From contig OZ076409.1 of NCBI GenBank assembly GCA_964187785.1, positions 70,496,001 through 70,560,000 on the forward strand: a stretch of 64,000 bases of DNA. Reading direction: 5' to 3'. A model generated the notes under the pieces. That model had not been told where the DNA came from, did no database searches, and worked only from the letters and a program-made list of their open reading frames with translations. The translations under genes were made by a program, and so were the position numbers. The DNA comes from Amphiscolops sp. MND2022 (taxonomy: Eukaryota). This document shows, piece after piece, positions 1-64,000 of this stretch (positions within the stretch are counted from its first letter, which is position 1; every line of letters begins with the position of its first letter).

Positions 1-51
1 TTTTTATTAGGTCTCATTATGGAAGCTGAAACCTCACGTTTTAACTTGATT

Positions 52-173
52 AACGTCAACGCCACATACTTTACATCAACGCCCACCGTCTGTGGGCATG
101 CCGAGGCATGCCCTTCGACGACGTATACCAAACAACCTCCATATCTACACCCACCCGCGGTAGCAGCTAGGTG
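52..173 (+). other. Conserved unit-end/junction module (representative copy; 32 copies in window)
   Basis: TCAACGCC at 56 and 76; palindrome GGGCATGCC-GA-GGCATGCCC at 94-113; TTCGACGACGTAT; variable tail; CTAGGTG at 167-173. The same order recurs at every junction. Confidence 0.95.
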
Positions 174-203
174 CGGGGGGGTAACCCCAACTTTTTTCTT
201 GGA

Positions 204-227
204 GGAATCGGGTAGGGTCCTGATTCC
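204..227 (+). other. 5' subterminal hairpin with TAGGGT loop (representative copy)
   Basis: GGAATCGGG-TAGGGT-CCTGATTCC here versus GGATTCGGG-TAGGGT-CCTGAATCC in other A units, a compensatory A-T/T-A swap. Confidence 0.85.
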
Positions 228-1702
228 GAGTTCAGTGCCGCCAGCTATCGTTAAAAACCCATACCTTTTAAACCCGATCTCGGGAACTAACCACGCCCCT
301 TCTTTAATTTTTTGGCCCCCACTCACTTTTTGAGAGTAGATCGCCCCCCATTGGGTTCGATGTTGGGCAAAAATGGAGATCATGGGTAACGGGGACCGTT
401 AAGGGGTAACTCAGGGGGTAAAATTTATTTTTTGCGTCATATCTTTTCCCCCCGTGGATTTAGCGTTTCCGGTCAGCAGACAAAACCTCATGTACGTGAT
501 ACGGGGCCTCCATAGGTCCAAACAAAATTTTTCTATCATGCACCGTTACGGACTTGGCCCCCCGGCCCAACCGTTATTTTACCGGAAATTGCACTTTTTG
601 ACCGGGAAGGAGTCGTCTGAGCACGGAGTCGTTTGGTAATGTTTTGTAGTGCATCTGGAGACGTGTTGGGGGACATGTAGTTTGCCGGCCCCAGTTTACC
701 CCCCGTACGGGAAATGACCGTTATGTGAGTTTTAAAACTACCCCCCTTCAATTTTCCCCGTTATTTCCGGTGTGAAGGAGTGGGAGTAGCGCGTCGGGTA
801 CCATATATCAAAAGTAGGTTTAGACAAGGACCAACCGGAAACTTGTTGTTTGGGACCCCCTGACCCAACCCATTAGCCGTTATAAGGGTGATCGCCTCCT
901 TTTTTTACTCTCAAAACCGGAAATGGGCATTGAGGGGTAAATATCTCGTGAACGCGTGGAGCAATCGTGTCCATCACTACTACAAGGTTTCATACCCATG
1001 ATATGGTGCCTTCAGGTGGGCAAACAGATTACCGCTATCTATCACCGTTACCGACTTGGCCCCCCAGCCTAACCGCTATGTGACCGGAAATTGCACTTTT
1101 TGAGCCCAAAGGGTCGATCCTAGCCGGGCAACGTTAGGTAACTTATTGTAGTACTCATTGAAACGAGTTGGGGGACATAGTTTCAGTCACCACCCGTTAC
1201 CTCTTAGGACCGGAAATGACCGTTATGAGGGTAAAATTGCAATTTTTATACATTTTGAAGGGCATTTAGGTGCGGAAGGAATGGTAATAGGTGCTTGGAC
1301 ACTATATGATGTAATGGAGGTCGTGAGGAGAGCATTCGGAAGTAACCGTTACGTTGACCCCAAAGTCCCCCTGGTACCGTTAACAACCGGAAATGGCCAA
1401 ATTTTGTGTTTATAGGGTACAAATGTTTGGTATTTTATGGATGAAAGTACCTGGAAGGTGTTTTAAAGGCCTCCAGAAGTGAACATAGTCATGAAACTTT
1501 GTGGGGGGTAACGGTATATAGCACCGGAAGTCCAAACCGTTGGTCACAGAATAGGTTTTTTGGTTTCAAAATGTCTTTAGGCGTAGTTTTGTGGGTTGAA
1601 TCGTCATAATATCAACTAATACGGACTTTTTTCGGAAATAAAATTTTTTCACATTAGTTTCAGGGACCTCCAATGTTTCAGTCAACATAACCGTTACATT
1701 TT

Positions 1703-1746
1703 GATAGCCTTTCAAGTTGGCCTGGTGTCAACTTGGAAGGGCTATC
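1703..1746 (+). other. A-family subterminal long hairpin (representative copy, one per A unit)
   Basis: GATAGCC-TTTCAAGTTG-GCCTGGTGT-CAACTTGGAA-G-GGCTATC: an imperfect inverted repeat about 400-420 nt before the unit end, nearly invariant across A units. Confidence 0.85.
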
Positions 1747-4700
1747 CTTCTAAAATCGTTAATCAAGAGTGTTTTTGGATAGATATATGTTGCATTAGTA
1801 CCAATTAGAGCTTCATCAACAGTTTGCCAACGGCAAAACAATGTCGTGATAATTCCGTTATAAGAATATTAATTAACAAATTGTTTCCAAAGTTGATTTT
1901 TTCCATTCGAAATGTGTCCTAATGTCACCAAATTGAATAAAATAATAAATGGTATTGACTAAACCTAAATAACATTGAAAAAGAAGCTCAACATTTTTAA
2001 TAGGTCTCATTATGGAAGCTGAAACCTCACGTTTTAACTTAATTAACGTCAACGCCACATACTTTACATCAACGCCCACCGTCTGTGGGCATGCCGAGGC
2101 ATGCCCTTCGACGACGTATACCAATTACATATATATCTACACCCACCCGCGGTAGCAGCTAGGTGCGGGGGGGTAACCCCAACAAAATTTTTGGAGGATT
2201 CGGGTAGGGTCCTGAATCCGATTTCAACTCTAATAGCTATCGATAGGAAATCTTGCAAAAATTTCGGGATCTCGTGATCTAACCATAGGATTTTAAAGTT
2301 GGAGCGGCCCCCACCAGATTTTCCGAAAATTAGCGCCCCCCACCGGGTTCCATACCCCGGAAAATTTTTTTCTGGCAACACGGGCGACCGTTAGGGGGTC
2401 ATTTTAGGGGTAAAATTCATATTGGTCCATATAACTTTTTTCCTGTTGATTTAAAAGTTTGGGAACCCTACTAAAGGTTTTTTGACCATGTTGCAAGGGC
2501 TCCGGAGGTGCAAACCAAATTTTTCTATCTTGAAGCTATCTCCAAGTACCCCCCCGCTCAAACCGTTATTTTTCCGGAAACGCAGGTTTTTGACCCGGAA
2601 GGAGTCGTCTGAGCGCGGGGTCGTTAGGTGATGTATTGGGGACGGCCTTGAGACGAAGTGGGGGACATGCAGTTTGCCAACCTCAGTTTACCCCCCGGAC
2701 GGGAAATGACCGTTATATGAGCGGGAAAAATGCCCCCCTCCACGTTTTACCGCTATTTCCGGTGTGAAGGAGTGGGAGTAGCGCGTCGGGTGCCATATAT
2801 CAAAAGTAGGTTTAAACAAAGACCTATCGGAAACATGTGGTTTGGGACCCCCTGGACCAACCCGTTAGCGGAAAATGGGGCTTCCGCCTCCTTTTTTTAC
2901 GGTTAAAAACGGAAAATGGGCATTGAGGGGTAAATATCTCGTGAACGCGTGGAGCTACGGTGTCCTTCACTACTACCAGGTTTCATACCCATGATATGGT
3001 GCCTTCAGGGGGGCAAACAGATTTCCGCTATCTATCACCGTTACGGACTTGGCCCCCCAGCCTAACCGTTAAGTGACCGGAAATGTCACTTTTTGAGCCC
3101 AAAGGGTCGGTCCCAGCTAGGGAACGTTAGGTAACTTATTGTAGTACTCATTGAGATGAGTTGGGGGACATAGTTTCAGTCACCCCCCGTTACCTCTTAA
3201 GACCGGAAATGACCGTTATGTGAGTAAATTTGCCGTTTTTGTCCTATTTGAAGGGCATTTAGATGCGGAAGGAGTGGTAATCGGTGCTTGGACACTATAT
3301 GAGGTAAGGGAGGATATGAGGCGAGCATTCGGAAATAACCGTTATGTTGACCCCAAAGTCCCCCTGGTACCGTAAACGACCGGAAATGGTCAAATTTTCT
3401 GTTTATAGGGTACAAATGTTTGGTATTTTGTAGATAAAAGTATCTATTAGGTGTTTCGACGGTCTGCAGTAGTGAACATAGTCATGAAACCTTGTGGGGG
3501 GTAACGGTATATAGCACCGGAAGTCCAAACCGTTGGAGACAGGATAAGTTTTTTGGTTTTAAAATGTCTTTCGGCGTACTTTTGTCGACTATTAAGGACT
3601 ACTTTTAAAAATTAAAGTTTTTCCATATAGTTTTAGAGACTCCGAAACCTCAACCAACATAACCGTTACATCATGATAGCCTTTCAAGTTGGCCTGGTGT
3701 CAACTTGGAAGGGCTATCCTTCAAAAATCGTCAATCAAGTGTGTTTTTGGGTATGTTTGTATCATTTTAGAATCAAATAGAGCTTGAAGAAAAGTTTGCC
3801 AAAGACAAAAACTATGTCGTGATGATTCCGTTATTTGAATAATAGTTAGCAAATTGTTGAGAAAATTGATTTTTTCCATATAAAATGTGTCCTAATTGCC
3901 AGGAAACCTATTTAACTAACAAATGGTATTGATTGGAATGTATGTAACAGAGTTATAAAAGTTCAAATTGATTATTACGTTTCATTATGGAAGCTGAAAC
4001 GTAATATTTTAGTTTAATTAACGTCAACGCCACACACTTTACATCAACGCCCACCGTCTGTGGGCATGCCGAGGCATGCCCTTCGACGACGTATGGCAAA
4101 TCCCTTCTAACGACGCCCGTACATCCCGGGCTAGGTGCGGGGGGGAAACCCCATCCCTTATCTTGGAGGATTCGGGTAGGGTCCTGAATCCGAGTTCAGT
4201 GCCGCCAGCTCTCAGTAGAAATCTGGGAAATTTTTTGCGATCTCGTGATCTAACCATAGGATTTTAAAGTTGGAGCGGCCCCCACCAGATTTTCCAAAGT
4301 TATTCGCCCCCCACCGGGTTCCAGCGTGATTGAAATATTCTGACGGGGTACACGGGCGACCGTTAGGGGTCATTTTAGGGGTAAAATTTATAAAAGTTCG
4401 CATAACTTTTTTCCTGTTGGTTTAAAACTTTAGGACCCTGCTAAAAGTTTCTTGACCATGTTGCAGGGGCCCCGGAGGTCCAAACCAAATTTTTCTATCT
4501 TGAAGCTATCTCCAAGTACCCCCCCGCCCAAACCGTTATTTTTCCAGAAACGCCGGTTTTTGACCCGGAAGGAGTCGTCTGAGCGCGGGATCGTTAGGTG
4601 ATGTTTTGGGGACGGCCTCGAGACGAAGCGGGGGATATATAGTTTGCCGACCCCAGTTTACCCCCCGCACGGGAAATGACCGTTATATGAGCGGGAAAAA

Positions 4701-7700
4701 TGCCCCCCTCCACGTTTTACCGCTATTTCCGGTGTGAAGGAGTGGGAGTAGCGCGTCGGGTGTTATATAACAAAAGTAGGTTTAGACAAGGACCTATCGG
4801 AAACATGTAGTTTGGGACCCCCTGGACCAACCCGTTAGCGGGAAATGGGGCTTCCGCCTCCTTTTTTTACTGCTAAAACCGTAAAATGGGCATTGAGGGG
4901 TAAATATCTCGTGAACGCGTGGAGCAATCGTGTCCATCACTACTACAAGGTTTCATACCCATGATATGGTGCCTTCAGGGGGGCAAACAGATTTCCGCTA
5001 TCTATCACCGTTACCGACTTGGCCCCCCAGCCTAACCGCTATGTGACCGGAAATGTCACTTTTTGAGCCCAAAGGGTCGGTCCCAGCCGGGGAACGTTAG
5101 GTAACTTATTGTAGTACTCAATGAGACGAGTTGGGGGACATAGTTTCAGTCACCCCCCGTTACCCCTTGGGACCGGAAATGACCGTTAAGTGGGTAAAAT
5201 TGCATTATTTATACTTTTTCAAGTGTATTTAGGTGCGGAAGGAGTGGTAATAGGTGCTTGGACACTATATGAGGTAAGGGAGGACGTGAGGCGAGCATTC
5301 GGAAATAACCGTTATGTTGACCCTAAAGTCCCCCTGGTACCGTAAACGACCGGAAATGGTCAAATTTTGTGTCTATTGGGTACAAATGTTTAGTATTTTG
5401 TAGATAAAAGTATCTATTAGGTGTTTCGACGGTCTGCAATAGTGAACATAGTCATGAAACCTTGTGGGGGGTAACGGGGTATATAGCGCCGGAAGTCCAA
5501 ACCGTTGGACACAGGATAGGTTTTTGGTTTGAAAATGTCTTTCGGCGTACTTTTGTCGACTATTATGGACTATTATTAAAAATTAAAGTTTTTCCATATA
5601 GTTTCAGAGACTCCGAAACCTCAACCAACATAACCGTTACATTTTGATAGCCTTTCAAGTTGGCCTGGTGTCAACTTGGAAGCGCTATCCTTCTGAAATC
5701 GTTAATCAAGAGTGTTTTTGGGTAGGTATATATTGTATTAGTACCAATTAGAGCTTCATCAACAGTGTATCAACGACAAAAACTATGCCGTCATGATTCC
5801 GTTATTAGAATCATAGTGAGCAAATTGTTGAAAAAATGGTTTTTTCCATACAAAATGTGTCCTAAATGCCAGGAAACCTATTTACCTAACAAATGATATT
5901 ATTGGAATGTATGTAACAGATTTATAAAAGTTCAAATTGAATATTACATTTCATTATGGAAGCTGAAACGTCATATTTTAGTTTAATTAACGTCAACGCC
6001 ACGCACTTTACATCAACGCACACCGTCTGTGGGCATGCCGAGGCATGCCCTTCGACGACGTATGACAAATCCTTATCAAACGACGCCCGTACATCCCGGG
6101 CTAGGTGCGGGGGGGTAACCCCAACAAAATTTTTGGAGGATTCGGGTAGGGTCCTGAATCCGAGTTCAGTGCTGCCAGCTTTCGTTAAGAAAATTTGGAT
6201 AGGATTCGGGATCTCGTGATCTAACCATAGGATTTTAAAGTTGGAGCGGCCCCCACCAGATTTTCCGAAAATTAGCGCCCCCCACCGGGTTCCATACCCC
6301 GGAAAATTTTTTTCTGGCCACACGGGCGACCGTTAGGGGGTCATTTTAGGGGTAAAATTCATATTGGGCCACATAACTTTTTTTCTGTTGATTTAAAACT
6401 TTGGGACCCTGCTAAAAGTTTCTTGACCGTGTTGCAGGGGCCCCGGAGGTCCAAACCAAATTTTTCTATCTTGAAGCTATCTCCAAGTACCCCCCCGCCC
6501 AAAACGTTATTTTTCCGGAAACGCAGGTTTTTGACCCGGAAGGAGTCCTCGGAGCGCGGGGTCGTTAGGTGATGTATTGGGGACGGCCTTGAGACGAAGT
6601 GGGGGACATGCAGTTTGCCAGCCCCAGTTTACCCCCCGGACGGGAAATGACCGTTATATGAGCGGGAAAAATGCCCCCCTCCACGTTTTACCGCTATTTC
6701 CGGTGTGAAGGAGTGGGAGTAGCGCGTCGGGTGCCATATATCAAAAGTAGGTTTAGACAAGGACCTATCGGAAACATGTAGTTTTGGACCCCCTGGTCCA
6801 ACCCGTTGGCAGGAAATGGGGCTTCCGCCTCCTTTTTTAACTGCTAAAACCGTAAAATGGGCATTGAGGGGTAAATATCTCGTGAACGCGTGGAGCTACA
6901 GTGTCCATCACTACTACAAGGTTTCATACCCATGATATGGTGCCTTCAGGGGGGCAAACAGATTTCCGCTATCTATCGCCGTTACCGACTTGGCCCCCCA
7001 GCCTAACCGCTATGTGACCGGAAATGTCACTTTTTGAGCCCAAAGGGTCGGTCCCAGACGGGGAACGTTAGGTAACTTATTGTAGTACTCAATGAGACGA
7101 ATTTGGGGATATAGTTTCAGTCACCCCCCATTACCCCTTGGGACCGGAAATGACCGTTATGTGGGTAAAATTGCAATTTTTATACTTTTTCAAGTGTATT
7201 TAGGTGCGGAAGGAGCGGTAATAGGTGCTTGGACACTATATGAGGTAAGGGAGGATATGAGGCGAGCTTTCGGAATTAACCGTTATGCTGACCCTAAAGA
7301 CCCCCTGGTACCGGAAGTGACCGGAAATTATCAAATTTTGTGTTTAAAGGGTACAAATGTTTGGTATTTTATGGATAAAAGTACCTATTAGGTGTTTCGA
7401 CGGTCTGCAGTTGTGAACATGGTCATGAAACCTTGTGGGGGGTAACGGTATATAGCACCGGAAGTGCAAACCGTTGGAGACAGGATAAGTTTTTTGGTTT
7501 TAAAATGTCTTTCGGCCTACTTTTGTTGACTATTAGGGACTATTTTTGAAAAATACAGTTTTTCCATATAATTTCAGAGACTCCGAAACCTCAACCAACA
7601 TAACCGTTACCTTATGATAGCCTTTCAAGTTGGCCTGGTGTCAACTTGGAAGGGCTATCCTTCAAAAATCATTAATCAAGTGTGTTTTTGAGTATGTTTG

Positions 7701-8079
7701 TATTACATTAGAATCAATTAGAGCTTCAAGAAAAGTTTGCCAACGACAAAAACTATGTCGTGATGATTCCGTTATTAGAATACTTGTTAACAAAGTTTTA
7801 AAAACGTTGATTTTTTACATTTCAAATGTGTCCTAAATGCCAGAAAACCTCTTTACCAAACAAATGGTATTGATTGAATTGTATATAACAGCTAATAAAA
7901 GTTCAAACTGAATATTACGTTTCATTTTGGAAGCTGAAACGTCATTTTATAGTTTCATTAACGTCAACGCCACATACTTTACATCAACGCCCACCGTCCG
8001 TAGGCATGCCGAGGCATGCCTTTCGACGACGTATACCAAATTCCTTTAACACAACACCCTCGAGCGCGGTAGCAGCTAG

Positions 8080-9351
8080 GTGCCGGGATTTCTATTCGAT
8101 AAGGTATTTTGCGCGGTTGGGTAGGGCCCCGTGAGCGCGCCAGGGGATAGTGTTAGAACAACAAGGATTTGGGCATCAGTTGGGAGCGATTTTCTAAACT
8201 ATCCGTACGATTTTGCTGAAATTTGGCACGAAGCTTCCTTGGAACATTCTAAGAACAAATCCCTACTGGCGTTTTGCTGGGAAAAATCAAAAAGTTGGTC
8301 AAAAATGCGATTTTCCGACAAAATTTTGGGGTAAAATTTTTTTGAAACGTTATATCTCGCCACAGGGTCACGCTAGCGCCTCGCAACCTATGATCGTGTT
8401 TTGTTGGGCGTTGTCTGTAGAACACGTATGCCAAATTTGGTGGCGATCGGACTTAAACTCAGGGAGATATAGCGATTTTTTAGGTGCATTTTTTGACATT
8501 TTTTGCATTTGCCGATTTATCTCTGCCGTTTTTGCCCAAATTTTTTTTGAGACACTCTCCTAAAGACCTCCCCTGGCCGGTTTACCTCCCAGAAAAACCA
8601 TTTGGCCCTAAATACGAAGTTTCAGCGTTCTAGCAATCCCGGGCGAAAAGTTATGGGACTTAGAAAATTTTTTTCGAAAACGCAAAATGTGTAAAGTCAA
8701 CTTCAGACCTCCCAAAGTCAAGGAACTTCCACACAACTAGTATTGCAAGTGAATGCATGTGGAAAGTACTCGAATAGACGAGGAAAATGAGCTCTAGAAC
8801 GACTCTGTATCTTAACCTGACGTTGACTTATGGTGTTTTGAATGTGGGCTTCCTGAGGGTTCTGAAAAGCAAAAATTGAAAATGGAAACTAAGTCCTATT
8901 GAAAACTCACCGGAATCCTTGCAATCGACCCCAGAACGTGCTCAATTGTAGTTTCCTAATCTATCAACGCCATTCAAGGTCTTTTGACTAATGTTGAAAA
9001 AATTGACACCGTATTATGTATCATTCATTCGATGGCACGAAACAGTTGAGTACATTCCATCTCCCTTTCGGGGGAGATGAGAATGTACTCGCTAAAGTCC
9101 AGGTACTACAGCCCATATTTCTTTTGATGCAACGCTCTTTATGCTAGTGCGCACAAGTATTATTCTTTTAATTGAATTTTCTTTTTAACTGCAGTTTGAC
9201 TTGGACTTGACATAAACTAAACGTTTTTGTCCCTACAACATACACATGACTAACGTCAACGCCCCATCCTTGCATCAACGCCCACCGTCCGTGGGCATGC
9301 CGAGGCATGCCCTTCGACGACGTATGCCCTCACAATCGCGGTAGCCGCTAG
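8080..9351 (+). mobile_element. Short-family unit, subfamily C (1272 bp)
   Basis: Starts GTGCCGGGATTTCTATTCG. The interior is unlike A but has short-family blocks (CCATTTGGCCCTAAATAC, ACGTTGACTTATG, GAGTACATT hairpin) and the same end module. Confidence 0.7.
9048..9090 (+). other. Short-family subterminal hairpin (representative copy, one in each of 12 short units)
   Basis: GAGTACATTC-CATCTCCC-TTTCGG-GGGAGATG-A-GAATGTACTC: 10+8 bp stems with one bulged A. The loop varies between subfamilies while the stems are kept. Confidence 0.88.
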
Positions 9352-52464: not shown

Positions 52465-52840
52465 GTGGCGGGGGGCTGTCCCCAATAGAATATAGTGAGG
52501 TAGGGTAGGGTTCCCTACCGAACATTCAGTACTGAAAGACTCTTGTAGTATGAAAATTTTTCGATGTTTTGAGACCGATTTCGGATTCCACCCGTCAGAA
52601 GTTTATGATTTTTTGGCCCCCACCCAGATTTTGGGCACTGATCGCCCCCCACCAGGTTCCATACCCGTGGTTTCGTTGTGACGGGTACACGAGCGACCGT
52701 TAGGGGTCAATCAGGGGGTAAAATTTATAAAAGTGTGAATAACTTTTCCCCCCGTCGTTTTAGCAGGTCCGGTCACTAGTAAAGGTTTGTTGGGCATCAT
52801 GCAGTGGGTACGGGGGGCCAAACAAAAATTTTCTATCTTG

Positions 52841-54880
52841 CACCGTTACGGACTTGGCCCCCCGCCCAAACCGCTATTTTACCGGAAATTGCACTTTTTG
52901 ACCGGGAAGGAGTCGTCTGAGCGCGGAGTCATTTGGTAATGTTTTGTAGAGCATCTGGAGACGTGGTGGGGGACATGTAGTTTGCCGACCCCAGTTTACC
53001 CCTCGGACGGGAAATGACCGTTATGTGAGTTTCAAAAATGCCCCCCTCCAATTTTCCCCGCAATTTCCGGTGTGAAGGAGTCGGAATAGCGTGTCGAGTG
53101 CTATATATCAAAAGTAGCTTTAAACAAGGACCTATCAGAAACATGTGGTTTGGGACCCTTTGAACGGACCCGTTAGCCGGAAATAGGGTGACCGCCTCCT
53201 TTTTTTGGTGGTAAAACCGTAAAACGGGCATTAAAGTGTAATTATCTCGTGAACGCGTGGAGCAATCGTGTCCATCACTCCTACAAGGTTTCATACCCAT
53301 GACATGGTGCCTTCAGGGGGGCAAACAGATCAGCGCTATCTATCACCGTTACGGACTTTGCCCCCCAGCCTAACCGCTATATTACCGGAAATTGCCCTTT
53401 TTGACCGGGAAGGAGTCGTCTGAGAGTGGAGTCGTTAAGTAATGTTTTGTAGAGCATCTAGAGACGTGTTGGGGGACATGTAGTTTGCCGACCCCGGTTT
53501 ACCCCTCGGACGGGAAATTACCGTTATGTGAGTTTTAAAATTGGCCCCCTTCAACTTTCCCCGTTATTTCCGATGTGAAGGAGTGAGGGTAGCGCGTCGG
53601 GTGTCATATATCAAAAGTAGGTTAAGACAAGGACCAACCGGGAACATGTTGTTTGGGACCCCCTGGCCCAACCCATTAGCCGCTATTAGGGTGATCGCCT
53701 CCTTTTTTTACTGCTAAAACCGGAAAACGGGCATTGAGGGGTAAAGATCTCGTGAACGCGTGGAGCAATCGTGTCCATCACTACTACAAGGTTTCATACC
53801 CATGATACGGTGCCTTCAGGGGGGCAAACAGATTACCGCTATCTATCACCGTAACAGACTTCCCCCCCAGCCCAACCGCTATGTGACCGGAAATTGCACT
53901 TTTTGAACGGGAAGGAGTCGTCGGAGAGCGAGCTCTTTAGGTAATGTTTTGTAGAGCATCTGGATGCGTGATGGGGGACATATAATTCGTCGACCCCGGT
54001 TCACCCCTCTTACGGGAAATAACCGTAATTTGAGCTAAAATATTGAACCCCTCCATGTTTAACCGCTACTTCCGGCGTGAAGAAGTAGGATTAGTGTGTC
54101 AAGTGCCATATATCGAAAGTAGGTTCTGACAAGGACCTATATGAAACATGTAGTTTGGGACCCACCGCTCCAACCCGTTAGCCGGAAATGAGGAGATTTT
54201 GTACTTCGTTTAATGTTAAAAGGGAGAAAATGACTTTGAGGGAGAAATGTCTCGTGAACGCGTGTAGCTACGAACTCCTTCACTACTGCATGGTTTCATA
54301 CCCATGATACGGTGCCTTCAGGGGGACAAACAGATTAGCGATATCAATCACCGTTGCGGACTTGGCCCCCAGCCTAACCGCTATGTGACCAGAAATGCCA
54401 CTTTTTGACGCCCATGAGTCGGTCCCAGCCTGGCAACGGTAGGTAACTTATTGTTGTACTCATTGAGACGACATTGGGGATATAGTTTCAGTCATCCCCT
54501 TCGGACTGAATATGACCGTCATGTTGGAAAATTTAGAATTTTAGTAGTTTTTTAAGGCCATTTATGTCGGGAGAGAGCGGTAATAGGGCTTTGGACATTA
54601 AATTATGGAAGAAGTGTAGTGAGAAGTGCATTCAGAATTGATTATTACGATGACCCGGAAGTACCCCTATCATAGGAAGTTACTGAATATGGTCAATGTG
54701 TGAGTTTCAACTTAAACATTTTTTGTGAATCAGCAAAAAATGTTAGTAACTTTTTATCGCCTTCAGAACTAATAAGTTTTGTTAAATGGTGTGAAATAGC
54801 AGTATTTAATAACGGAAGTCCAACCTGTATCAGTCTATAAATACCAAATTGGTTTCAGAATAACTTTAGACGTGTTTTTG
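52841..54880 (+). repeat. ~503-bp subrepeat: three copies plus a diverged fourth
   Basis: CACCGTTACGGACTTGGCC-like anchor at 52841, 53344, 53847 and 54349. The same anchor occurs twice in the first A unit (541, 1043). Confidence 0.9.
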
Positions 54881-54949
54881 TGGATAAAATATCAAATACA
54901 GATTTGCACAATTTAAAAGATTAATATTTTCATTTGAGGTACCCTGATT

Positions 54950-55460
54950 ATAGAATATTATAGTATAGTATAGAATACAATAGTATAGAATATTATAGTA
55001 TAGAAAAATATAGTATAGAATTTTCTGTTATAGTATAGTATAGTATAGAATAGAACAGTATAGAATATTAAGATCATTATTGTTTAGTAAAGTATAGTAT
55101 AGTATAGTATAGTATAGTATAGAGTAGTATAGTATAGTATAGTGTAGTATAGAATTGTATAGTTTAGAACATTATATTACAGTACAGTATAGAATAGTAT
55201 AGTTTAGTATTGTTCAATATATTATATTATATTATTGAATAGAATATTATTGTAAATTTTAGTATAGTATAGTGTATTAAATTATATTCTATCATAGTAA
55301 AGTATAGTATAGTATTTATAGTTTATTATATTATATTATATTATACTATAGTATTGTATAGTACAGTATATTACATTAAAATATAGTACAGTATAATATA
55401 TTTTTGAATAATATACTAAAGTATAGTATAGTGTGGTATAGTTTAATATAGTATATAGTA
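54950..55460. repeat. Degenerate (AGTAT)n/(TATAG)n pentanucleotide microsatellite
   Basis: Runs such as AGTATAGTATAGTATAGTAT at 55091-55140, with AT-rich degenerate flanks. Confidence 0.95.
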
Positions 55461-55519
55461 TGCATTATGATAAAAATTTTAGTTCTCCTTGATCAAGTTT
55501 AAATTTATTTATGATTAAA

Positions 55520-56990
55520 ACCGAGGTCATTTTTGTCAATGCTTATACCTACAGCATGAAACAAGTGAATAGGCAGTTTCTAGGAGCATAGTAGCGAAAA
55601 ACATTTGGTCCTAAGTGTCATTCATGGACTAATATTTTCATTGTGTCATTAAAATCGCCTAATTCAATTCTGTTAGGAGGATTTTTGAGCATGTAAAAAT
55701 GGTTTTTAAATGCTTCTAGCATCCGATATAACCATTACAGTGAGAAAGGAAACATAATAAAGACCCCTAATTGGTTTTAGAAATTTAAAGTTCTTATAAA
55801 TTATTTTACCATTCGCCTTTTTGCAGGTTTTGATTGTTTACTTCAGACTGGTTGCATATAGCTCAGACCAATGTATCAAAATGTTGCAGAATCTGAAAAT
55901 AAATCTCATAGCCAACGATGTTGATATTTAACAATTCTCGTACATAAAGAATGTTTTAAAGGTTTTTCACTGAATGGAGCATCCGATAGAACTGTTAGAG
56001 GGAGAAAGCATATATAGAAAGAACCCTGTTGCATCTTGGAAATGTAGGAGTTTTCGCTTTGTATAGTTTCCCTTGGCTCTTTTAGTATCTCTTATAACGT
56101 ATACAAAGAGCAACAGGCATTTGTAAACACCAAAAAAGGTTTCAGAATTTTTTCTCTTTTATTGGCGGTTTTAGCAGGGTCTACACGTGCAAGTCAAAAT
56201 TATAAATTGATCATTTTGAAATAGAAATATTCATCGGATCTTGTCTACAATGATCACTTTGCAAATCGACAGACTTGTTGTCGACTGAATGAAAAATTAT
56301 TTCGTGAAACTAAATTTTTTTTAAACGAGCTTACAACATATTTCAGATATTTGGAGTTTATTTTATGTTGTTTCACATTTACTGACTGTTCACTCCCAAA
56401 AGAAAGGTGTCAGTTTTACAAAAAGTTGCTGTAAGTGCTAGTGGGTAGAGTAAAAATATTTGTTGAGGTTTAAAAAACTCTATCTAATACAAAAAGACAT
56501 TGACATTTTGATTAGTGAACTTTTTTTAAACTCCCACACTAAAAAAGCATGTTGTTGACAAGTAGAAAATTGAATTAGACATTTTTGGACGTCATAAATG
56601 ACACTGTCGTAAAATATGGGCCCAATGATACATGGAACAAGCACCAATAATCATGTAATAGAAGATATATCATATTTATCTACTATAAGACGTTACTTTT
56701 GGTGTATTTAGCATTTTGATTAAAAGTGTTTGTCTCTGTGGAACAAGTTGAAACTTGTTTGTGACCACAACTAAGGTCATATTTGTCAACTCTATAAGTA
56801 CAGTATGCAACAGGTGTATGGGAATATTATAGGACTATAAACGGAAATGGTTCGGTCTCGAGTGTTCATTCATTGACCAATGTTTTAATTGTGTCTGTAA
56901 AATGGCTTCGTTTAATTCTAATAGGAGGATTGTGGAGAATGTAAAAATGGTTGTTAATTGCTTCAAGCACCCAATAGTAACATTATTATG
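55520..56990 (+). repeat. Diverged ~230-bp direct repeat pair (~55520-55750 and ~56770-56990)
   Basis: Shared in order: AGGTCAT.TTTGTCAA, TACAG.ATG.AACA.GTG, TCATTCAT.GAC, ATTGTGTC, AATTCT..TAGGAGGATT, ATGTAAAAATGGTT.TTAA.TGCTTC.AGCA. Confidence 0.8.
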
Positions 56991-57754
56991 AGGAAGCAAA
57001 TATCAAAAAGATTCCTGCCAGGTTTCGGAAATGTAGATCTGTTCTAAATTCTTTTTCCACACGCCTAATTGCTGTTTTTTATAGTTTACTTCAAAACTGT
57101 TGTATTCAGCTCGGCAGACAAATCTGACTAAATGTTCCCCAGTCTGAAAGTATGATAGCTTACCTTCATGCATATGAATTATTTTGATTTTCAATGTTCA
57201 TATAGACACCTATGTTAAGACCGTCGTTTTTGCCTAACTCTACGTTGACTTATGTTGTTTTGAAGCTGCGATTCTGGTGTGTCAAGTTCCAAATATAGTA
57301 TGAAGCATCCAATTTTTGTGAAGCCTAAGTATGCACTCCGATGTTATCAGTGGGCCCATGATATTCGAGAACACGAATGGCACTGTTACAACTGCTACCG
57401 AAATTAATTGAGAACCAATAAGACAGTTTTCATAGGAAAAATTCTGGAATGAAGTAAACATCTCGGAATTGTGGAAATATAATTAAAAGTGATGTAAACA
57501 AAATTTAACCCATTGATGTCAATCACTATGTACACAGAACGCGTTGTGTGCGTTTCAGTAGTAAAATGAGGTTTTTCAAGAAGAAAGTCTGTTCAAGGAA
57601 TGACTATTAAACATTCTTTCGGTATTTGGTTGCATTTCTTATGTCAATTTTTGGTTCTAGTCGTTATATCGTTGTTCCAGGGCATCATTGTCGTTTTTGC
57701 TCCTCCTACGTTGACTTGCAACATCTGAAAATAAATTTGTGAATAGTTCTAATA

Positions 57755-57860
57755 TAATTATTAATTTACATACAATATATATATATATATAAGATAAAAT
57801 ATATATTATTATATTATATACTCAATTAATGTATTATGTATAAAATATATATATATTCCT
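57755..57860. repeat. AT-rich low-complexity/(TA)n tract
   Basis: ATATATATATATAT runs in almost pure A/T sequence. Confidence 0.8.
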
Positions 57861-58162
57861 TCTTTGTGAAATTAAAATATTATAATATACATAACATTCG
57901 TTGGTGTAAAATAAATCCCAGAAAAGATTTTTGAGAAGCAGACAAATACATCTGAGAAAAAAATTTTGTTGTAATGAAGTTAATGTTGCTTCTTTGTTCT
58001 AGCTAAAATATTGAATATTGTTGCATATGGTGTCATTTGAGGGACTGACTGATTTTATCATGACTTTACTTAGTATTGCTTGTTTTTTTCAGAATCACTT
58101 TATCAAGAAAATCAAGAATCATCAAACAATTGGCTACAACTTAAATTTTTTCAGAAAAAAAC

Positions 58163-58748
58163 ATGAGTCAAAACGCTGTTAATGCGAATGCGCAAAAAGT
58201 AAAGAGTAAAGAAGTTATGAAAGAAGGTGAAAAAGACATGTTCCTCACGGTGGTTCTAAAGTCAAAAAGTCTAAAGTCAGAGGTGGATTTCCAGAATAAA
58301 AAAGAATGCTATGTATTCGCAGAGAGCCTTATGGAAAGAATGAACTTGAAAGCGTCGAAAATAACGGTCGCAGCATTCAAGCAGAAATGGATATTTTTCA
58401 ATTTTGAAACAATGTAGGTTAACTTTCTTCCGAAAATTTGTTCATAAACATAATTTTTTACACGTAAAATATGATTTACAGGATGCGAAAGAATGCAGAG
58501 AATGGCTGACAAGTAACCAAGAAATACACGAAAAAAATACAATTTATGTAACCAATTTTCAAAAAACTCCTAGCATTTTCCATCAAAGTTGTAACCAAGC
58601 CTTCAAACGATCTCCTCACTTTCTTGACCCCAACCCCTCCTGCTCGACTCAACCAACCAGACAATACACTGCAAAGGACTTGAAATCACGCGATGGGCAA
58701 CTCCACCATGATATTTTCATCAAAACTAAAAGACCAAAGATGTTTTAA
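58163..58748 (+). pseudogene. Two-exon small gene (58163-58417 + 58482-58748) encoding an RRM-like protein, with an in-frame TAG at the exon junction
   Basis: A 64-nt GT..AG intron (AG|GTTAAC...TTACAG|G, 58418-58481) joins two ORFs in frame to give ...KWIFFNFETM*DAKECREWL..., an RNP1/helix-2-like pattern. AATAAA follows at 58795-58800. Fold assignment is by eye only. Confidence 0.5.
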
Positions 58749-59597
58749 CGTATCGATTCCAACTTTCACTTTAACTTTTAACTCTTTAAATTGTAATAAA
58801 AATTAATGATTTTGTTTTTTTTAGGACTGACTTGCAGTTGAGACTTTTAAAATCATAACAACTTCAATTTCAAAATCGAAAAATAATGTTAAAATATAAT
58901 TTAATGTGTTTTTTAATTTTTTTTTCATGATCCAATTTTTGTTATGATTTTAAATAAAGTCTCTCAGGTACGTGGCAACTGTGGATCCTGATGTCAGCGG
59001 GTTGTTCAACAATCAGACGTGGAATAGATGTCACAATTTCATATTTCATAATGGTAATTGATCATGATTGGATATGCACGTCAATCAAATGAAACATATG
59101 CAACAAAAAATCCTAATGACAAAGTTCTGCGAACAGGAAAGGGAGAAATATGATAAAACGAAAACACCAACTGGAATTACTTCAATTAAACCCTCATAAT
59201 TTCTTTACTTATATAACATAATTTAACGAATAATATACATTCATAATTATCTATAGCATAGGTTTGAAAATTAATAACTATTTAATGTAATGTTCAGTTA
59301 TATGACGCCTTGTTTATTTTTGCTGCGTTACTCATGAACCGGGAATAATTCCTGGTCATTAGTGATTGGAATTGTTTAATTTATCTAAATGACCTATACT
59401 TTTTTTTTTCAAATTTTTAATACGAGTTAATCAATAGTTATAAAGTTAGACTGTTAATAATTATTTGAGAAGGCCAAACTATATTTCTTATTCAAAAAAA
59501 TACATTAGCAGCGCAATTGTTATGAAGTGTTTAATAAGTATTTCAAATATGTAGTACTTAATAGAATAAATGCTTAATTGTTGAAAAGTGGTTAAAT

Positions 59598-59699
59598 TAC
59601 GGCTCATCAGGAGTTAGCTTGCTGCGTTATGCGGAAGGCCCTCCTGATGAAGCTATGTCCCCCCTTTTTTCAGTGGGTAACCTATGCCCAATTTTTTTT
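59598..59699 (+). ncRNA. Structured ~100-nt element, copy 1 (unknown class; RNA status inferred)
   Basis: TCATCAGGAG pairs with CTCCTGATGA; there is an inner stem, a second small hairpin TGGGTA..TGCCCA and a T-run. It is a GC-richer island in AT-rich DNA. Confidence 0.45.
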
Positions 59700-60503
59700 C
59701 AAGCAAAATTTTCCAGCTTTTAGATCAGTAACTTGTATTATTTTTCATTGACATTGATAATTTTTGAATATTTTGGTCATTTTTAGTCATAAACCTTTAA
59801 CCATTAAATTGTGCTCTCATTGAAGGTACTGTTGTATCATGCGTTTGCTGTTTTGAAACATCCTGACAAGTTTGATTCATTGAATGACTCCGGTCATTTC
59901 TTTTTATTTTGATAAAAAGTTTCATTGTAATAGAAATTTGGTTAGATACAACAGTTATTAATTTACCTTTTAAAAAATGTAATATTCCATATAGGGTTTA
60001 TAAGTTTTATAAAAATATATGGTATATGGATTTTACTGATTTTTGCAAACATGAAATTCTCACGAGCCCATGTGAATTTTCTGACAATGCCTGACAAGAA
60101 TTTTCACAATGCCATTGAAGCAATTGAAGAAAATGGTTATTTTGATATTTTCTCATTTCAGACATAAACTACATTCAACATACCTACAGTTGAAATAATA
60201 TCGAACACTTATAGAAAACCAATACATTTTTTCATCAATTAAAATCCTTATCTTTCGCTTATCAAGAAAAACACCGAAAATTTGAAATTTACTCGAAAAT
60301 TTGCAGCAAACAGCGTTTTCATACAGTGCGCAATTACAATTTTTAGCTCCAAGTGTAATAACTATTTTTGTTAGAAAGTTTAATAACTTATCTACAATAA
60401 ACTAGTTGAAATCCTTTGGAAATCTATTGCGTATATCAAATTCCTAGTCACGCGTTTCGTTAAATAACAAAGATTCACACGGATAAATATTTTGTTGGAA
60501 AAA

Positions 60504-60606
60504 TACGGCTCATCAGAAGTTAGCTTGCGGCGTTATGCTGAAGGCCCTTCTGATGATGCTATGTCCCCCCCATTTTTCGTGGGTAACCTATGCCCAATTT
60601 TTTTTT
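60504..60606 (+). ncRNA. Structured ~100-nt element, copy 2
   Basis: TCATCAGAAG pairs with CTTCTGATGA (compensatory relative to copy 1); 906 bp downstream of copy 1, with unrelated flanks. Confidence 0.45.
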
Positions 60607-61437
60607 GGTCAAGAATTTGCGTATCCTAGTTTTAAAACATACATTTTCATCAATAACAAGTAAGTAATTTTATCATTGTTTACATAAATTAATATTGAGA
60701 TTTGTAAAAAAATGTTACATATCAACCTTGTTATATCTGTTGCAATTATCTGATACAAAACCCCAAAAAATTTTCGGCGAATACAAACTACAAGAAATAG
60801 CAAATATTTCAGTTTTAAAGTTCTTATGTCAAAAATTTTGCATGATGGTAATGTCATTACTTCAAAAAAATTTAACATTTTCATTGAAATAGATTTAAAA
60901 AATTTTTTGGCAACAGATATATCATTTTGTTTTCTTCTGTGTACCTATTATTGTTATAAAAATGTAATCGGATAATTGTAAATCAAATAATTATTTCGAA
61001 CTAATGTCTTTTCTAATATAATTTAAAGCACCATTTATGGTTCAAATCTCACTCAATCGTTTACCTCAAATTTTTGATAGAGAATCATTTTGTTTGGTAC
61101 AAAGTCGAATTCGTGCAATCGAGAATCATCAATGCGATTTCGGTAACTCAATCGTTTCAGTATGTTATAATGAGAAAATTTTCATCGGATGCGTTATTAC
61201 TCGAGAAAATTATTTTTCAACAAAATAAACTACTTTCAGATGTTGAATTTTTAGTTTATTCTTTAATTTGTGTATTTTTAAACCTTTCCACATCTAAAAA
61301 TTCCAACGAATTTTTGCGTTCAAAAAAATGCGCTTCGATGTTTCCGTCCTTATTTTCGTTTTCGGATTACTTTAATTTATTGAGATAACATCTTCAATAC
61401 ATTTTTTTCATTTTCGGTATTATTACTTCAGGTGGTC

Positions 61438-64000
61438 ATGCCTAAAAAGAAAAGAGTTGTCAAAAAGGATCCTAATACTGGACGGTTCCTTCCAAAAGTC
61501 GAAAATACAGATGATTGTGTTTTTACCACACAGTGCCAAGAAGTAGTTTCTACTGAAGATTCAACTGGTAGCCAAGTTGTTCTAGACGTTGGCGACATCG
61601 CGAATTCAAATTTGGAATCTTCATCAGAAAAAACAAATGGAGAAAGTAAAAAGATGCATCCATTTACTGAATATAACGTGACACAAGACAGCGTTTCAAT
61701 TCAAAATGCAATGGACAACTTTGTTACAATCGGGAAAACGATGAAGAGAATTGTGAGTGTTAATTTGACAAGACTTTACATTACCGCTGGAGTTTTCCTG
61801 TGTTTGAAAACATCTATTGATAATGTTTGTGAAAATTGTTACCGAGAATCAACAACTGGTTATCCTTTACATTTCCAATCAGTTCATTCATCTGCACTAA
61901 GAAAACGTAAATTTTGCAGAGACTTTCATGAAAACCAAGAAGTAGTTCTGTGTGACGACTGTTTGCTCTATTATAACAAACCATGTTGGAATCATGCGTG
62001 GCCGTCGGTTTTGTGCACACTTTTTTTCAGTGGTGACAAATATGGATGCAATGGCCGATACTTTTTTACTTTGTTCCCAAAATCTTTTACAGACTCTTGG
62101 GCAAAGGTGTCTTGTCGTTTTGGATATTGTAATCTGGAAACTTTACCTTTGTTTGAAGATTATACTTTAATCAAAAAACAATTCGATCAATTAGTAATGT
62201 CACACAGAGGCCATGATTTGAAACATAACTTAAATAATTTTAGTTTCCCCTTCATTAAATGTCCAGTTGGATGTAATACCCTCATTAATGAAACTGGCAA
62301 AATTTCTTTCGTGCACTTATTAAATTACCTTTTCCCCAATTTCAAATCTTTTGGAGCAAACAAAAATTACCTGCGAAGCATGCGAGAAGACTGGTTGAAT
62401 TCTACGTTACATTTGGATACATTCTTAAGTTCACCATGTTTATCCGTCGACGAAAATGGTTTAGCTCTGGTTACTTGTTACATGCACAACAAAAAGATTG
62501 ACAAACAAATTGTTCACATGGCTCCTTCTTGTTTCGGAAATTTATTTCACGTACAGGTGGATCGTTTAGCTCCAATGGCAACAAAAGTCAGAGGTTACTT
62601 ACCAGCAAAAGTTGGAGAATTTAGTCATGGATTTACAATTTCAACAAGTTTGGGCGGTCAGTTCGGCATAAGTTGTTTACAGCTGACAAATAAACGATGT
62701 TTCAATGTGAAAAGTGACTACTTATTACCAACTTTAGAACCCGTTATTTATGCCAATCGACAAGATGTTCGTAATGTAGTTAATTTACTTTACAATGACC
62801 ATTCGTTGAATATGGATTTTATCGAATACTTGAAAAGTAGTACCTGCACTCTTGGTAGAGAGGTGTTAGAATCATTCAATGAATCCAGTAACTCGCTTTC
62901 CATGTTCGCAATGCTCTGCGTAAAGAAGTATTTGGAAGAAAATAATGATCTCAAAAAGCCAATACCATCTTCATTGCTAAATTGTCATAACATGAACAAA
63001 ACAGGTCTCCAACCTTTTCTTGCAGCTCGGAAGCACTTTAATAGAAGAGTTTCTTTATTTCTTTTGATTTCTTGGTTCATTAATTATGAATATTTTGGAT
63101 TCATTTGCTTAGTCGACAGTAGAATCTCCAGTTTGCTAATTCAACAATTGAACGGTCTTCACCGGACAAAAAGTTACTGCAATTCATCAACTCTGAACTC
63201 TTTGGAAACAAGTTTCCGTGAATCGTTCAATTTGGAAGATAGTAGTTCGATCCATTTAGATTTCATGACTCGAATACTTGACACGATAGACGGTTGTAAA
63301 GTTATTTATTGCCCTGAACGAAAAATCATCAATATGTTAGAGTTTCACAGTTTTGTTGATAATTCTGAATCAGTTAACGTTGTCTGTATCATCAACCAAG
63401 AAGATAAGTCTTTGAGAAACTTTGGAATTCCTGAAATTATTCAAATTTACAACAAGCAGTTTCAATTAGTTTATTTATTTGCGACAATTAATGATCCTAT
63501 CCTGATGAGGTACGGTAATGAATTCTTTGAATGGTGGTGTTTCGATTCAAAAAATAACCTTGTGTTAGATGCAACTACCATGTGTAACTGCAAATGTAAT
63601 TTCGAAAGGAGTTGGAAAATTTTACTTTATTTGGGTGATTACACAGACATAAAACCCTCTGTGATGTCGAGTATCTTTGGGAGTGGGCAAGATAAAATCA
63701 AATGTGGGTATCATGAAAAACTCTTATCTACTGATCTTAGTGATTCAACCTATAAATGCTCCATTACCAATTGTCAACGGAAGTCCGCGTACAGATGTCC
63801 TGAAACGAATTGTTTTACTAGTGTCTGTAACAGGCATTTGAAAAGTTTAGAAGACAACAAATTGCATTTTTTGAAATGTTCCGAAAATTTTGAAAATAAT
63901 GATAGCTACGAAACTTTGGATATGCATCGAGTTATTGAAGATGACGAAAATCAACTTGGAATTGATTATGTATTAGAAGGCATACAAGAAACCGGTTTTG
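61438..64000 (+). CDS. Large Cys/His-rich protein, N-terminal 854 codons, open at window edge; possibly the N-terminal region of a Helitron-like Rep/helicase
   Basis: Translated by hand: MPKKKRVVKKDPNTGRFLP...GIDYVLEGIQETGF with no stop in 2563 nt of AT-rich DNA. NLS-like start; CENC/CDDC pair, HAWPS, KCPVGC, and CGYH...CSITNC...RCPETNC...CNRH clusters. Confidence is for coding status; the product call is much weaker. Confidence 0.9.
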   Translation, partial: MPKKKRVVKKDPNTGRFLPKVENTDDCVFTTQCQEVVSTEDSTGSQVVLDVGDIANSNLESSSEKTNGESKKMHPFTEYNVTQDSVSIQNAMDNFVTIGKTMKRIVSVNLTRLYITAGVFLCLKTSIDNVCENCYRESTTGYPLHFQSVHSSALRKRKFCRDFHENQEVVLCDDCLLYYNKPCWNHAWPSVLCTLFFSGDKYGCNGRYFFTLFPKSFTDSWAKVSCRFGYCNLETLPLFEDYTLIKKQFDQLVMSHRGHDLKHNLNNFSFPFIKCPVGCNTLINETGKISFVHLLNYLFPNFKSFGANKNYLRSMREDWLNSTLHLDTFLSSPCLSVDENGLALVTCYMHNKKIDKQIVHMAPSCFGNLFHVQVDRLAPMATKVRGYLPAKVGEFSHGFTISTSLGGQFGISCLQLTNKRCFNVKSDYLLPTLEPVIYANRQDVRNVVNLLYNDHSLNMDFIEYLKSSTCTLGREVLESFNESSNSLSMFAMLCVKKYLEENNDLKKPIPSSLLNCHNMNKTGLQPFLAARKHFNRRVSLFLLISWFINYEYFGFICLVDSRISSLLIQQLNGLHRTKSYCNSSTLNSLETSFRESFNLEDSSSIHLDFMTRILDTIDGCKVIYCPERKIINMLEFHSFVDNSESVNVVCIINQEDKSLRNFGIPEIIQIYNKQFQLVYLFATINDPILMRYGNEFFEWWCFDSKNNLVLDATTMCNCKCNFERSWKILLYLGDYTDIKPSVMSSIFGSGQDKIKCGYHEKLLSTDLSDSTYKCSITNCQRKSAYRCPETNCFTSVCNRHLKSLEDNKLHFLKCSENFENNDSYETLDMHRVIEDDENQLGIDYVLEGIQETGF

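Follow-up and report, generated by a model that had tools for sequence, protein, structure and literature searches.

The window analysed here, a stretch of 64,000 nucleotides from Amphiscolops sp. MND2022 (contig OZ076409.1, C1 below, positions 70496001-70560000, no N), is taken up by a head-to-tail array of mobile units and by the first part of a 20-kb element that encodes a RepHel transposase, that is, a Rep protein fused to a helicase. The best reading of this array is a pile-up of Helitron-like rolling-circle transposons of a deep RepHel lineage. Judging from patterns across the genome (a 1.07-Gb assembly, to which all genome-wide counts refer), these transposons probably insert at the ends of elements of their own kind and regenerate their own nick site. 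A fuller version, to which we give slightly better than even chances, is that a deeply diverged RepHel-GIY-YIG lineage would use its own origin hairpin as integration target, in the manner of an HUH site-specific integrase, with 36%-identical lineages sharing one landing site and building polar multi-family fields of up to megabases. The system is real and extends across the genome, and its termini are new for a Helitron-like rolling-circle lineage.

The initial annotation had proposed 31 units of several families, in one orientation and joined without spacer at one 7-nt site, and this is what we find. All 32 CTAGGTG sites of the window are on the + strand and none is on the - strand, and they bound 31 complete units of 1,268-1,994 bp, all co-oriented and with spacer DNA absent, as follows.

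1..170, + strand: 3' end of the preceding A unit; the array extends leftward by at least 35 kb
94..113, + strand: example of the 3' palindrome (GGGCATGCC-GA-GGCATGCCC), 45-75 nt before the CTAG end
167 (167..173), 2159, 4131, 6101, 8076, 9348, 11339, 13310, + strand: starts of CTAG/GTG seams
15282, 17255, 18524, 20516, 22487, 23756, 25026, 26295, + strand: starts of seams, continued
27563, 28967, 30241, 32208, 33496, 34786, 36756, 38731, + strand: starts of seams, continued
40707, 42681, 44652, 46646, 48619, 49901, 51183, 52461, + strand: starts of seams, continued
171..52464, + strand: 31 complete non-autonomous units in a head-to-tail train, each running from GTG to CTAG, with no target-site duplication
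171..8079 (units 1-4), 9352-17258, 18528-22490, 30245-32211, 34790-48622, + strand: family A, 18 units of ~1.97-1.99 kb
204..227, + strand: example of the 5' subterminal hairpin, with a family-specific stem and the loop (G/T)AGGG(T/C/G) ~40-49 nt from the GTG start
8080..9351 and 32212-34789 (two units), + strand: family F/B, 3 units of ~1.27-1.29 kb
17259..18527, + strand: family C, 1 unit
22491..27566, + strand: family D, four tandem units, 97-99% alike
27567..28970, + strand: family E, 1 unit of 1,404 bp
28971-30244, + strand: family C', 1 unit
48623-52464, + strand: family D', three units, 98-99% alike
52396..52464, + strand: D' unit adjoining the autonomous element, its 3' module and closing CTAG

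Units of family A are 80-99% identical and have in common with the 1.3-kb families solely the ~100-bp end module; the 1.3-kb families are partly alike at 68-85%, and D and D' together make up 7 units of ~1.27-1.28 kb. The short units hold a few incidental antisense frames of 150-156 amino acids (aa) and no long open reading frames (ORFs). Across C1:70.46-70.63 Mb the array has 83 seams, and between any two of them lies either a single unit, 1.0-3.1 kb long, or the 20,207-bp element, which is flanked by the array for at least 35 kb on the left and at least 60 kb on the right. An Rfam scan of the window gave 0 matches, and a retrozyme, ribozyme or spliced-leader array is rejected on this absence together with the RepHel driver.

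A common end module had also been noted, and indeed the palindrome module precedes all 32 seams, a variable hairpin often lying nearer the 3' end than the conserved palindrome. The seams had been located without the head motif, which stands 40-49 nt downstream at every one of them. The cut falls inside the 7-mer, so that CTAG closes one unit and GTG opens the next, and all 32 window units begin with GTG. At 124 sampled seams, a set chosen by presence of the head motif, the last four nucleotides are CTAG in 112, CTGG in 10 and CTTG in 2, and being family-specific they belong to the upstream element; this set comprises 24 head families and 70 tail|head combinations. The 7-nt joint of the initial annotation therefore holds for the window but is not universal, as some families elsewhere end in CTGG or CTTG, or with a wholly different tail. 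Array and solo edges, sampled within C1 38-71 Mb, complete the picture: to the left, host CTAG (L021) or host CTTG (L024, and L027 after an 80-bp spacer) stands directly before GTG, and to the right CTDG is followed by host DNA. These edges indicate that the elements are 5'-GTG...CTDG-3' (D = A, G or T), that they insert on the 3' side of a CTDG and duplicate nothing, and that they leave a CTDG|GTG seam with a neighbour. No target-site duplication and no long terminal inverted repeats appeared at the seams and edges examined, and in the 31 units no asymmetric terminal inverted repeats were found (inverted matches reach 4-6 nt at most, on average 4.9, against 5.7 in a cross-family control).

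The hairpin of the head seems to be maintained as a structure. When heads of the 24 families were folded, their own arms gave a mean of -7.65 kcal/mol vs -5.33 +/- 0.33 for permuted arms (0 of 20,000 permutations), with the own arm ranked first or second in just 10 of 24 families, which are themselves related; this covariation of the predicted stem lends support to the hairpin and does not amount to proof. A scan of metagenomes yielded four contigs, each too short to show a neighbour, and the one that reaches a head (L062, with a 42%-identical transposase) begins in the conserved-loop hairpin, with an 11-bp stem, and has 5' blocks common to families C, D and F.

As the initial annotation had it, the last unit runs on into a long gene-bearing element, for which a HUH-Y2 Rep, a PIF1 helicase and a closing palindrome+CTAG module had been predicted; both domains are found in its 2,189-aa RepHel, and the module is present at its end. 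Its features are the following.

52465..64000, + strand: first 11.5 kb, on the 5' side, of the 20,207-bp autonomous element (end at C1:70568671, 8.7 kb past the window)
52499..52519, + strand: 5' hairpin, 7-bp stem and loop TAGGGTT
52773..54409, + strand: about three ~500-bp internal repeats, 77-83% alike, common to family A
54949..55455, + strand: (TATAG)n microsatellite
61438..64000, + strand: start of the RepHel ORF, residues 1-854 of 2,189; the window ends before the motifs for HUH, Y2 and PIF1, the GIY-YIG exon and ORF2 are reached

The element closes with a variant of the module plus CTAG, the GTG of an F unit comes directly next, and the array goes on. Towards its 5' end it is 76-80% identical to family A, and the same array contains a derivative of 2.79 kb whose first 1.57 kb match it at 96%. 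RepHel (P0001, 2,189 aa, from the ATG at 61438; the stored protein copy differs by a few residues) has an N-terminal region of ~850 aa without Pfam match, then Helitron_like_N (PF14214, above cut-off) at 1047-1151 and PIF1 (PF05970) at 1743-1906; the 872-aa frame inside the window gave nothing significant in Pfam, the domains being seen solely with the full protein. Among 20 long aligned relatives T1061, H1146-x-H1148, Y1317 and the Walker A residues are invariant, Y1321 is kept in at least 90%, and every PDB match of RepHel at E<0.001 is a Pif1-type helicase. By these predicted motifs the element is a member of the Helitron superfamily, with a HUH Rep carrying two catalytic tyrosines, a fused PIF1-like SF1B helicase and no target-site duplication. 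Internal duplications were seen in it, around 57462-59152 and as a 445-bp pair (72%, about 55462-55901 and 56711-57152) and a 106-bp pair (91%, 59594-59699 and 60500-60605), as well as short exon-like frames upstream of RepHel (58145-58745 of the window) with no credible Pfam match, possibly a small passenger gene.

That the module would occur elsewhere in the genome had been foreseen, and there are 5,080-5,085 exact copies (0 for the reversed-pattern control), in arrays at many loci and on both strands. CTDG|GTG follows within 25-55 nt in 4,882 of 5,085 (96.0%); module, seam and head motif together give 4,333 matches, a few of them double-counted (reversed control 0); and CTDG precedes 814 of 817 A heads. 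The RepHel ORF has ten DNA matches at ~100% identity, amounting to about 10 near-identical copies over 5 contigs. Of 22 protein matches nine are at 99-100% identity and the rest at 36-43%, which indicates that several lineages coexist in this genome. The second lineage is represented by a 13.7-kb element with a 36%-identical RepHel, an in-frame GIY-YIG domain and an unrelated tail; it sits at seams of another array, and its 5' part matches the 1.3-kb families. Autonomous elements here thus measure 13.7-20.2 kb, and many short non-autonomous families retain the ends only.

The young copies of the 20-kb element speak for insertion at seams. We checked the expected 5' end of nine other copies and the 3' end of eight, together with the window copy. 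All nine located 5' ends follow another unit's tail and all nine located 3' ends precede another unit's head, with the element's own tail kept in each; the copies are 99.7-100% identical over the 300 bp compared inside, and their flanks switch exactly at the seam. The eight copies with both ends show at least six different flank pairs, and for four of the eight, window copy included, the same tail|head pair without the element was found among the 124 sampled seams (paralogous sites, not empty alleles). The initial annotation had seen here a landing pad that regenerates its target, and the young driver copies, at seams with varied neighbours, agree with this; the 7-nt site alone, on the other hand, is insufficient (see below).

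One alternative dispenses with own-end targeting altogether, the arrays arising by rolling-circle read-through multimers and unequal exchange and the mixed seams by crossovers within the module or by blocks moved together. Head-to-tail multimers are reported for Helitrons of plants and bats, and their head-to-tail junctions and tandem arrays are known (PMC5876387). Runs of the same family (D x4, D' x3, F x2) fit this account, as do the mosaic A units and the three driver copies with similar flanks described below. Crossover in the module would, however, link a tail to the next head, and we see the opposite: across 81 units the tail is independent of the next unit given its own family (p=0.80) and dependent on its own family given the next (p=0.0002), so that exchange has taken place at the seam and not inside the shared module. 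The 20-kb element likewise has its own tail in nine of nine copies and changes neighbours at the seam, the point of joining is one and the same for a 36%-identical lineage and for families whose tails are unrelated, with only 4 nt in common, and no higher-order repeated block of units exceeds chance (longest 4; shuffles mostly 4). We regard this account as unlikely as a full explanation.

Several observations nevertheless weigh against seam insertion as the sole or even the demonstrated process. Of 82 neighbour pairs 50 are of the same family, where shuffling gives 32 (p=1e-4), and the closest relative of an A unit differs from one stretch of the unit to another, which makes these units mosaics; it follows that duplication or recombination built part of the array. 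A units next to each other have all the same no greater identity than those far apart (90.3 vs 89.9%). The C13 copy of the 20-kb element has no 5' end at the expected position. Those on C2, C3 and C4, three contigs, have similar flanks, were counted once and perhaps go back to a single insertion that was multiplied as a block. The share found in arrays could also be inflated if dispersed copies are selected against. As head and tail are both present at all nine driver copies, recognition of one is not separable from that of the other. On the host side the sequence is loose, +1 being G in 6 and +2 being T in 9 of 12 right-edge rows, two of which are one duplicated site and one of which has a mutated tail, with 150 bp visible for nine. 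Finally, 203 of the 5,085 modules lie away from seams, which implies that plain sites are usable by the enzyme. Multimer insertion, or local duplication with recombination, does act on top of seam insertion.

Another possibility is an IS91-like short target (CTDG, then mostly G or T), the clustering being due to a chromatin preference and to the purging of copies elsewhere. The window units contain 57 further CTAG sites, which could serve on either strand and are difficult to accommodate in it, for none of them was ever hit; each of the 31 units is intact and points the same way, without a single inversion. CTAGGTG has 53,189 genomic copies, 4,168 of them with the strict head motif, and seams are ~8-9% of these 7-mers, yet nine of nine located driver ends of each kind lie at seams. 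Solo-like ends exist all the same, the host left flank at array and solo edges is CTAG or CTTG in three of three cases, and IS91 is described as using a tetranucleotide target like its own end (PMC13181058). On balance we consider the short target unlikely. Given the share of 7-mers with a head motif and the untouched CTAG sites, a bare CTAGGTG appears to be insufficient as target. We favour the resident head as the part recognised, since families whose tails are unrelated have it in common, in a set itself chosen by the head motif, and since a different organism retains it.

That this is an ordinary satellite beside a host gene, or an assembly artefact, is extremely improbable. Tandem organisation is what such an array would share with a satellite, but satellite DNA has one monomer and unequal exchange, and here we count 24 head families, 70 combinations and a driver at the seams. 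Members of one family differ by 1-20%, and arrays are present at many loci and on both strands. A host gene without downstream module or units at other loci, the outcome that the initial annotation had named against itself, is not what the region holds: the ORF is a RepHel transposase with about 10 near-identical copies on 5 contigs, the end module is present and the loci are many. Its view that this is no ordinary satellite stands on the RepHel driver and the many families, with the qualification that duplication and recombination also act, as same-family runs and mosaics attest. The comparison with an integron, in contrast, finds no support. Integrons have a tyrosine recombinase and attC-bounded gene cassettes in an ordered array behind a promoter; no recombinase domain was found in the scanned ORFs, the short units lack long ORFs that would make them gene cassettes, and no repeated unit block beyond chance and no order beyond same-family runs were found.

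We propose the following mechanism for insertion at own ends. The enzyme would nick the top strand at CTDG^GTG, as Helraiser and IS91 chemistry suggests, and one strand would be peeled off and circularised, with a joint that again reads CTDG^GTG; the circle would then be joined to a target in which the nick follows CTDG. The sequence CTDG^GT(G) would thus recur at the donor origin, the terminator, the joint of the circle and the target. The preferred target would be the end of a resident element, most simply its origin (CTDG^GTG plus the conserved-loop hairpin), which may be the best substrate because it also offers the hairpin bound to start transposition. Every insertion would retain the site and add one, so that an array grows from within, in one orientation and open to every family in the lineage. 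New arrays would be founded when, rarely, an element inserts at a plain CTDG of the host, and rolling-circle multimers, tandem duplication and recombination would yield the same-family runs and mosaic units. For Helraiser, a plus-strand nick, circles with a precise joint of right and left terminal sequences (RTS-LTS) and cleavage of such joints are described (PMC5876387), and IS91 is reported to insert beside a tetranucleotide resembling its own terminator cleavage site (PMC13181058).

A further domain deserves attention in this context. Across a predicted 67-nt GT-AG intron the RepHel ORF continues in frame into a GIY-YIG exon (PF01541 E=2.4e-4, slightly below the cut-off). The relatives L060-L062 carry GIY-YIG at this position too, as a frame of its own after the ORF, and Pfam finds GIY-YIG in 14 of 20 long clade members and an OTU domain in 3 of 20; DUF6570 and AP endonuclease were detected in none of the 20 (Pfam, E<=0.01). 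With such a domain as hallmark of the clade, counting the intron-separated exons of the window element and L060-L062, self-targeting could be real and yet be due to GIY-YIG, which would cut seams as a homing endonuclease does, the elements being copied in by repair. In GIY-YIG enzymes the Arg of R-L-x-x-H-N has a catalytic role. The motif is RLxxHN in most members checked, but SALRRHN in the young 20-kb lineage (L005:7071-7602) and EELxxHN in L060-L062, and because this Arg is absent from both, GIY-YIG is unlikely to be the targeting nuclease of the young lineage. The seams are moreover precise, as in HUH joining, and we hold GIY-YIG targeting to be very improbable. Behind the main GIY-YIG exon two further copies of it were observed in a decayed state, with 66% and 35% aa identity (L005:8250-8850).

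The remaining gene, ORF2 (436 aa, 3' of RepHel), is 34% identical to the ORF at the same position in the second lineage. Neither Pfam nor PDB has a credible match to ORF2, and AlphaFold2 models of it had a predicted local distance difference test (pLDDT) of 30 and 31. Feature matches in the ESM Atlas to OB-fold single-stranded DNA-binding proteins (0.90-0.93, with a low recognition score) suggest that it may be a candidate of this type, which we take as a lead only. A provirus was considered and rejected, given that no viral relative and just RepHel and ORF2 were found; viral contigs yielded no relative of RepHel, and their five pattern matches, without similarity to the units, are taken as chance.

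With respect to known systems, the termini and target fit neither HLE1 nor HLE2. In a Rep+helicase tree (462 columns, unrooted) 15 clade members are split from 6 HLE1-type and 7 HLE2-type proteins with 100/100 support and a stem of ~1.8 changes/site; the groups were each gathered by similarity to one seed and labelled from Pfam content, and long branches meet in the tree. Motif anchors missed 12 of 59 proteins (1 clade, 10 HLE1, 1 HLE2), which were dropped, and 28 of the remaining 47 make up this tree, with which a FastTree of all 47 rows agrees; named Repbase, algal Helitron2, FoHeli, proto-Helentron and Paramecium proteins and subgroups c and d were left out. The clade is separate from the 7-16 HLE2 proteins sampled in these unrooted trees. 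The RepHel family has 237 representatives at 50% clustering, its long members being mostly 21-49% identical, and such an old and diverse protein family probably deserves its own clade name.

HLE1 (Helraiser, tandem Helitrons of plants) has in common with our elements a RepHel with HUH, two tyrosines and PIF1, palindromes before a 3' CTAG, in keeping with the 3' hairpin plus CTRR of that group, the lack of target-site duplication and, as reported, head-to-tail RTS-LTS joints and tandem arrays (PMC5876387, PMC11417382). It differs in its 5' TC (here GTG) and in inserting at A^T (here after CTDG), and our elements have in addition the 5' conserved-loop hairpin, CTGG and CTTG ends, a GIY-YIG tail, a separate long branch and multi-family arrays as main habitat, with 96% of ends. 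With HLE2 (Helentron, Helitron2, FoHeli, proto-Helentron) they share RepHel, hairpins near both ends and the OTU domain; its asymmetric terminal inverted repeats, T^T target, DUF6570 and AP endonuclease are not seen here. One Sphagnum HLE2 family with GIY-YIG is mentioned in PMC11417382, and proto-Helentron is described with a CTAG end, TT start and A^T insertion (PMC4067079). Replitron, as described, has a Y1 Rep without helicase and short terminal direct repeats (PMC10288648) vs Y2 and PIF1 here.

The nearest conceptual case is the telomere-targeting "third clade" of Paramecium Helitrons, which according to PMC13085455 is likewise a deep RepHel clade outside HLE1 and HLE2 with long ORFs, strict orientation, ORF-less derivatives and accumulation in one compartment through target specificity. 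It has a CCAA end and a telomeric C4A2 target, against a CTDG end and own-seam target here, a comparison made by description. IS91 shares Y2 HUH, the absence of target-site duplication, a CTTG/GTTC target next to the origin end with a like tetranucleotide at the terminator end (PMC13181058) and the logic of a self-regenerating site; it is bacterial and has no fused helicase, and the consulted part of that source describes no long mixed arrays or own-seam preference. HELIANO lists "unclassified HLEs", RepHel proteins outside HLE1 and HLE2 falling into no fewer than four further clusters from 19 genomes, whose termini, target and array behaviour are not described in the main text as consulted (PMC11417382); our clade may be one of these, and the HELIANO and Paramecium supplements could bear on its novelty. 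Accumulation of Helitron-derived DNA at megabase scale, autonomous and non-autonomous, is reported for Hydractinia arrays (PMC11934779) and Meloidogyne centromeres (PMC13404089), the former a single 372-bp repeat and the latter HLE1 between satellites, and mixed trains with precise seams are not described in what we consulted of either. Occasional self-insertion of Helitrons is noted in Fusarium (PMC5148889). Full-text literature searches, with Repbase, subscription journals and supplements outside their range, returned no title or abstract with GTG...CTAG termini or mixed seam-targeted arrays.

Helitrons have dinucleotide targets and a scattered distribution, and their tandem arrays are explained as rolling-circle multimers; a 2016 Plant Journal paper reportedly dealt with centromeric tandem Helitrons. 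Here, dozens of families and several transposase lineages, ~5,000 elements in all, are found almost only at each other's ends. If insertion at own ends is true, it would be a host-sparing strategy with a self-made safe harbour, which our literature searches for eukaryotic DNA transposons did not find, and a direct path from transposon to megabase satellite-like domain. It would also be a natural integration of 20-kb cargo aimed at a short portable site, scarless and site-regenerating, of interest to genome engineers. Target choice by Helitrons becomes testable with intact, near-identical young copies and a candidate target of <100 bp.

Other observations concern the wider genome. A PF14214 scan gave strong HLE1-type and weaker HLE2-type matches dispersed over many contigs (among the 150 of 152 matches listed), and HLE1-type and HLE2-type Helitrons with long open frames are also present (L048-L050), across many contigs, which offers a comparison of target choice inside one genome. 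The same matches include 17 weak ones of clade type, all on the + strand of C1:71.6-76.5 Mb, in a span of about 5 Mb downstream of the window, and mostly in frames of ~1,900-2,550 aa; they may belong to a single polar field of transposons that extends over several megabases and could be centromeric or heterochromatic. Arrays of + and - strand meet at L019:6199-8716, which suggests an inversion or two converging arrays. The second lineage has an extra 222-aa ORF (L029:4362-5027, - strand) with no Pfam match and no tblastx match in the window element, the start of which (VALVGASN) we take to be reminiscent of a GDSL/SGNH motif.

In L027 (- strand, near 4400-4550) two seams lie ~80 bp apart with non-element DNA between them (CTAG|GTT...CTTG|GTG), which may be a local insertion beside a resident end. 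The host left flank of one solo copy (L024:4600-5870) resembles the copy's own tail (TCACTCT..CTTG on both sides), a single case that chance or homology assistance could explain; homology-guided target choice, suggested by this copy alone, was rejected. Lastly, families of ~1.07 kb with other tails (C1:37.9-38.07 Mb, L025-L027) form small scattered clusters instead of long trains, and may be less strictly seam-targeted.

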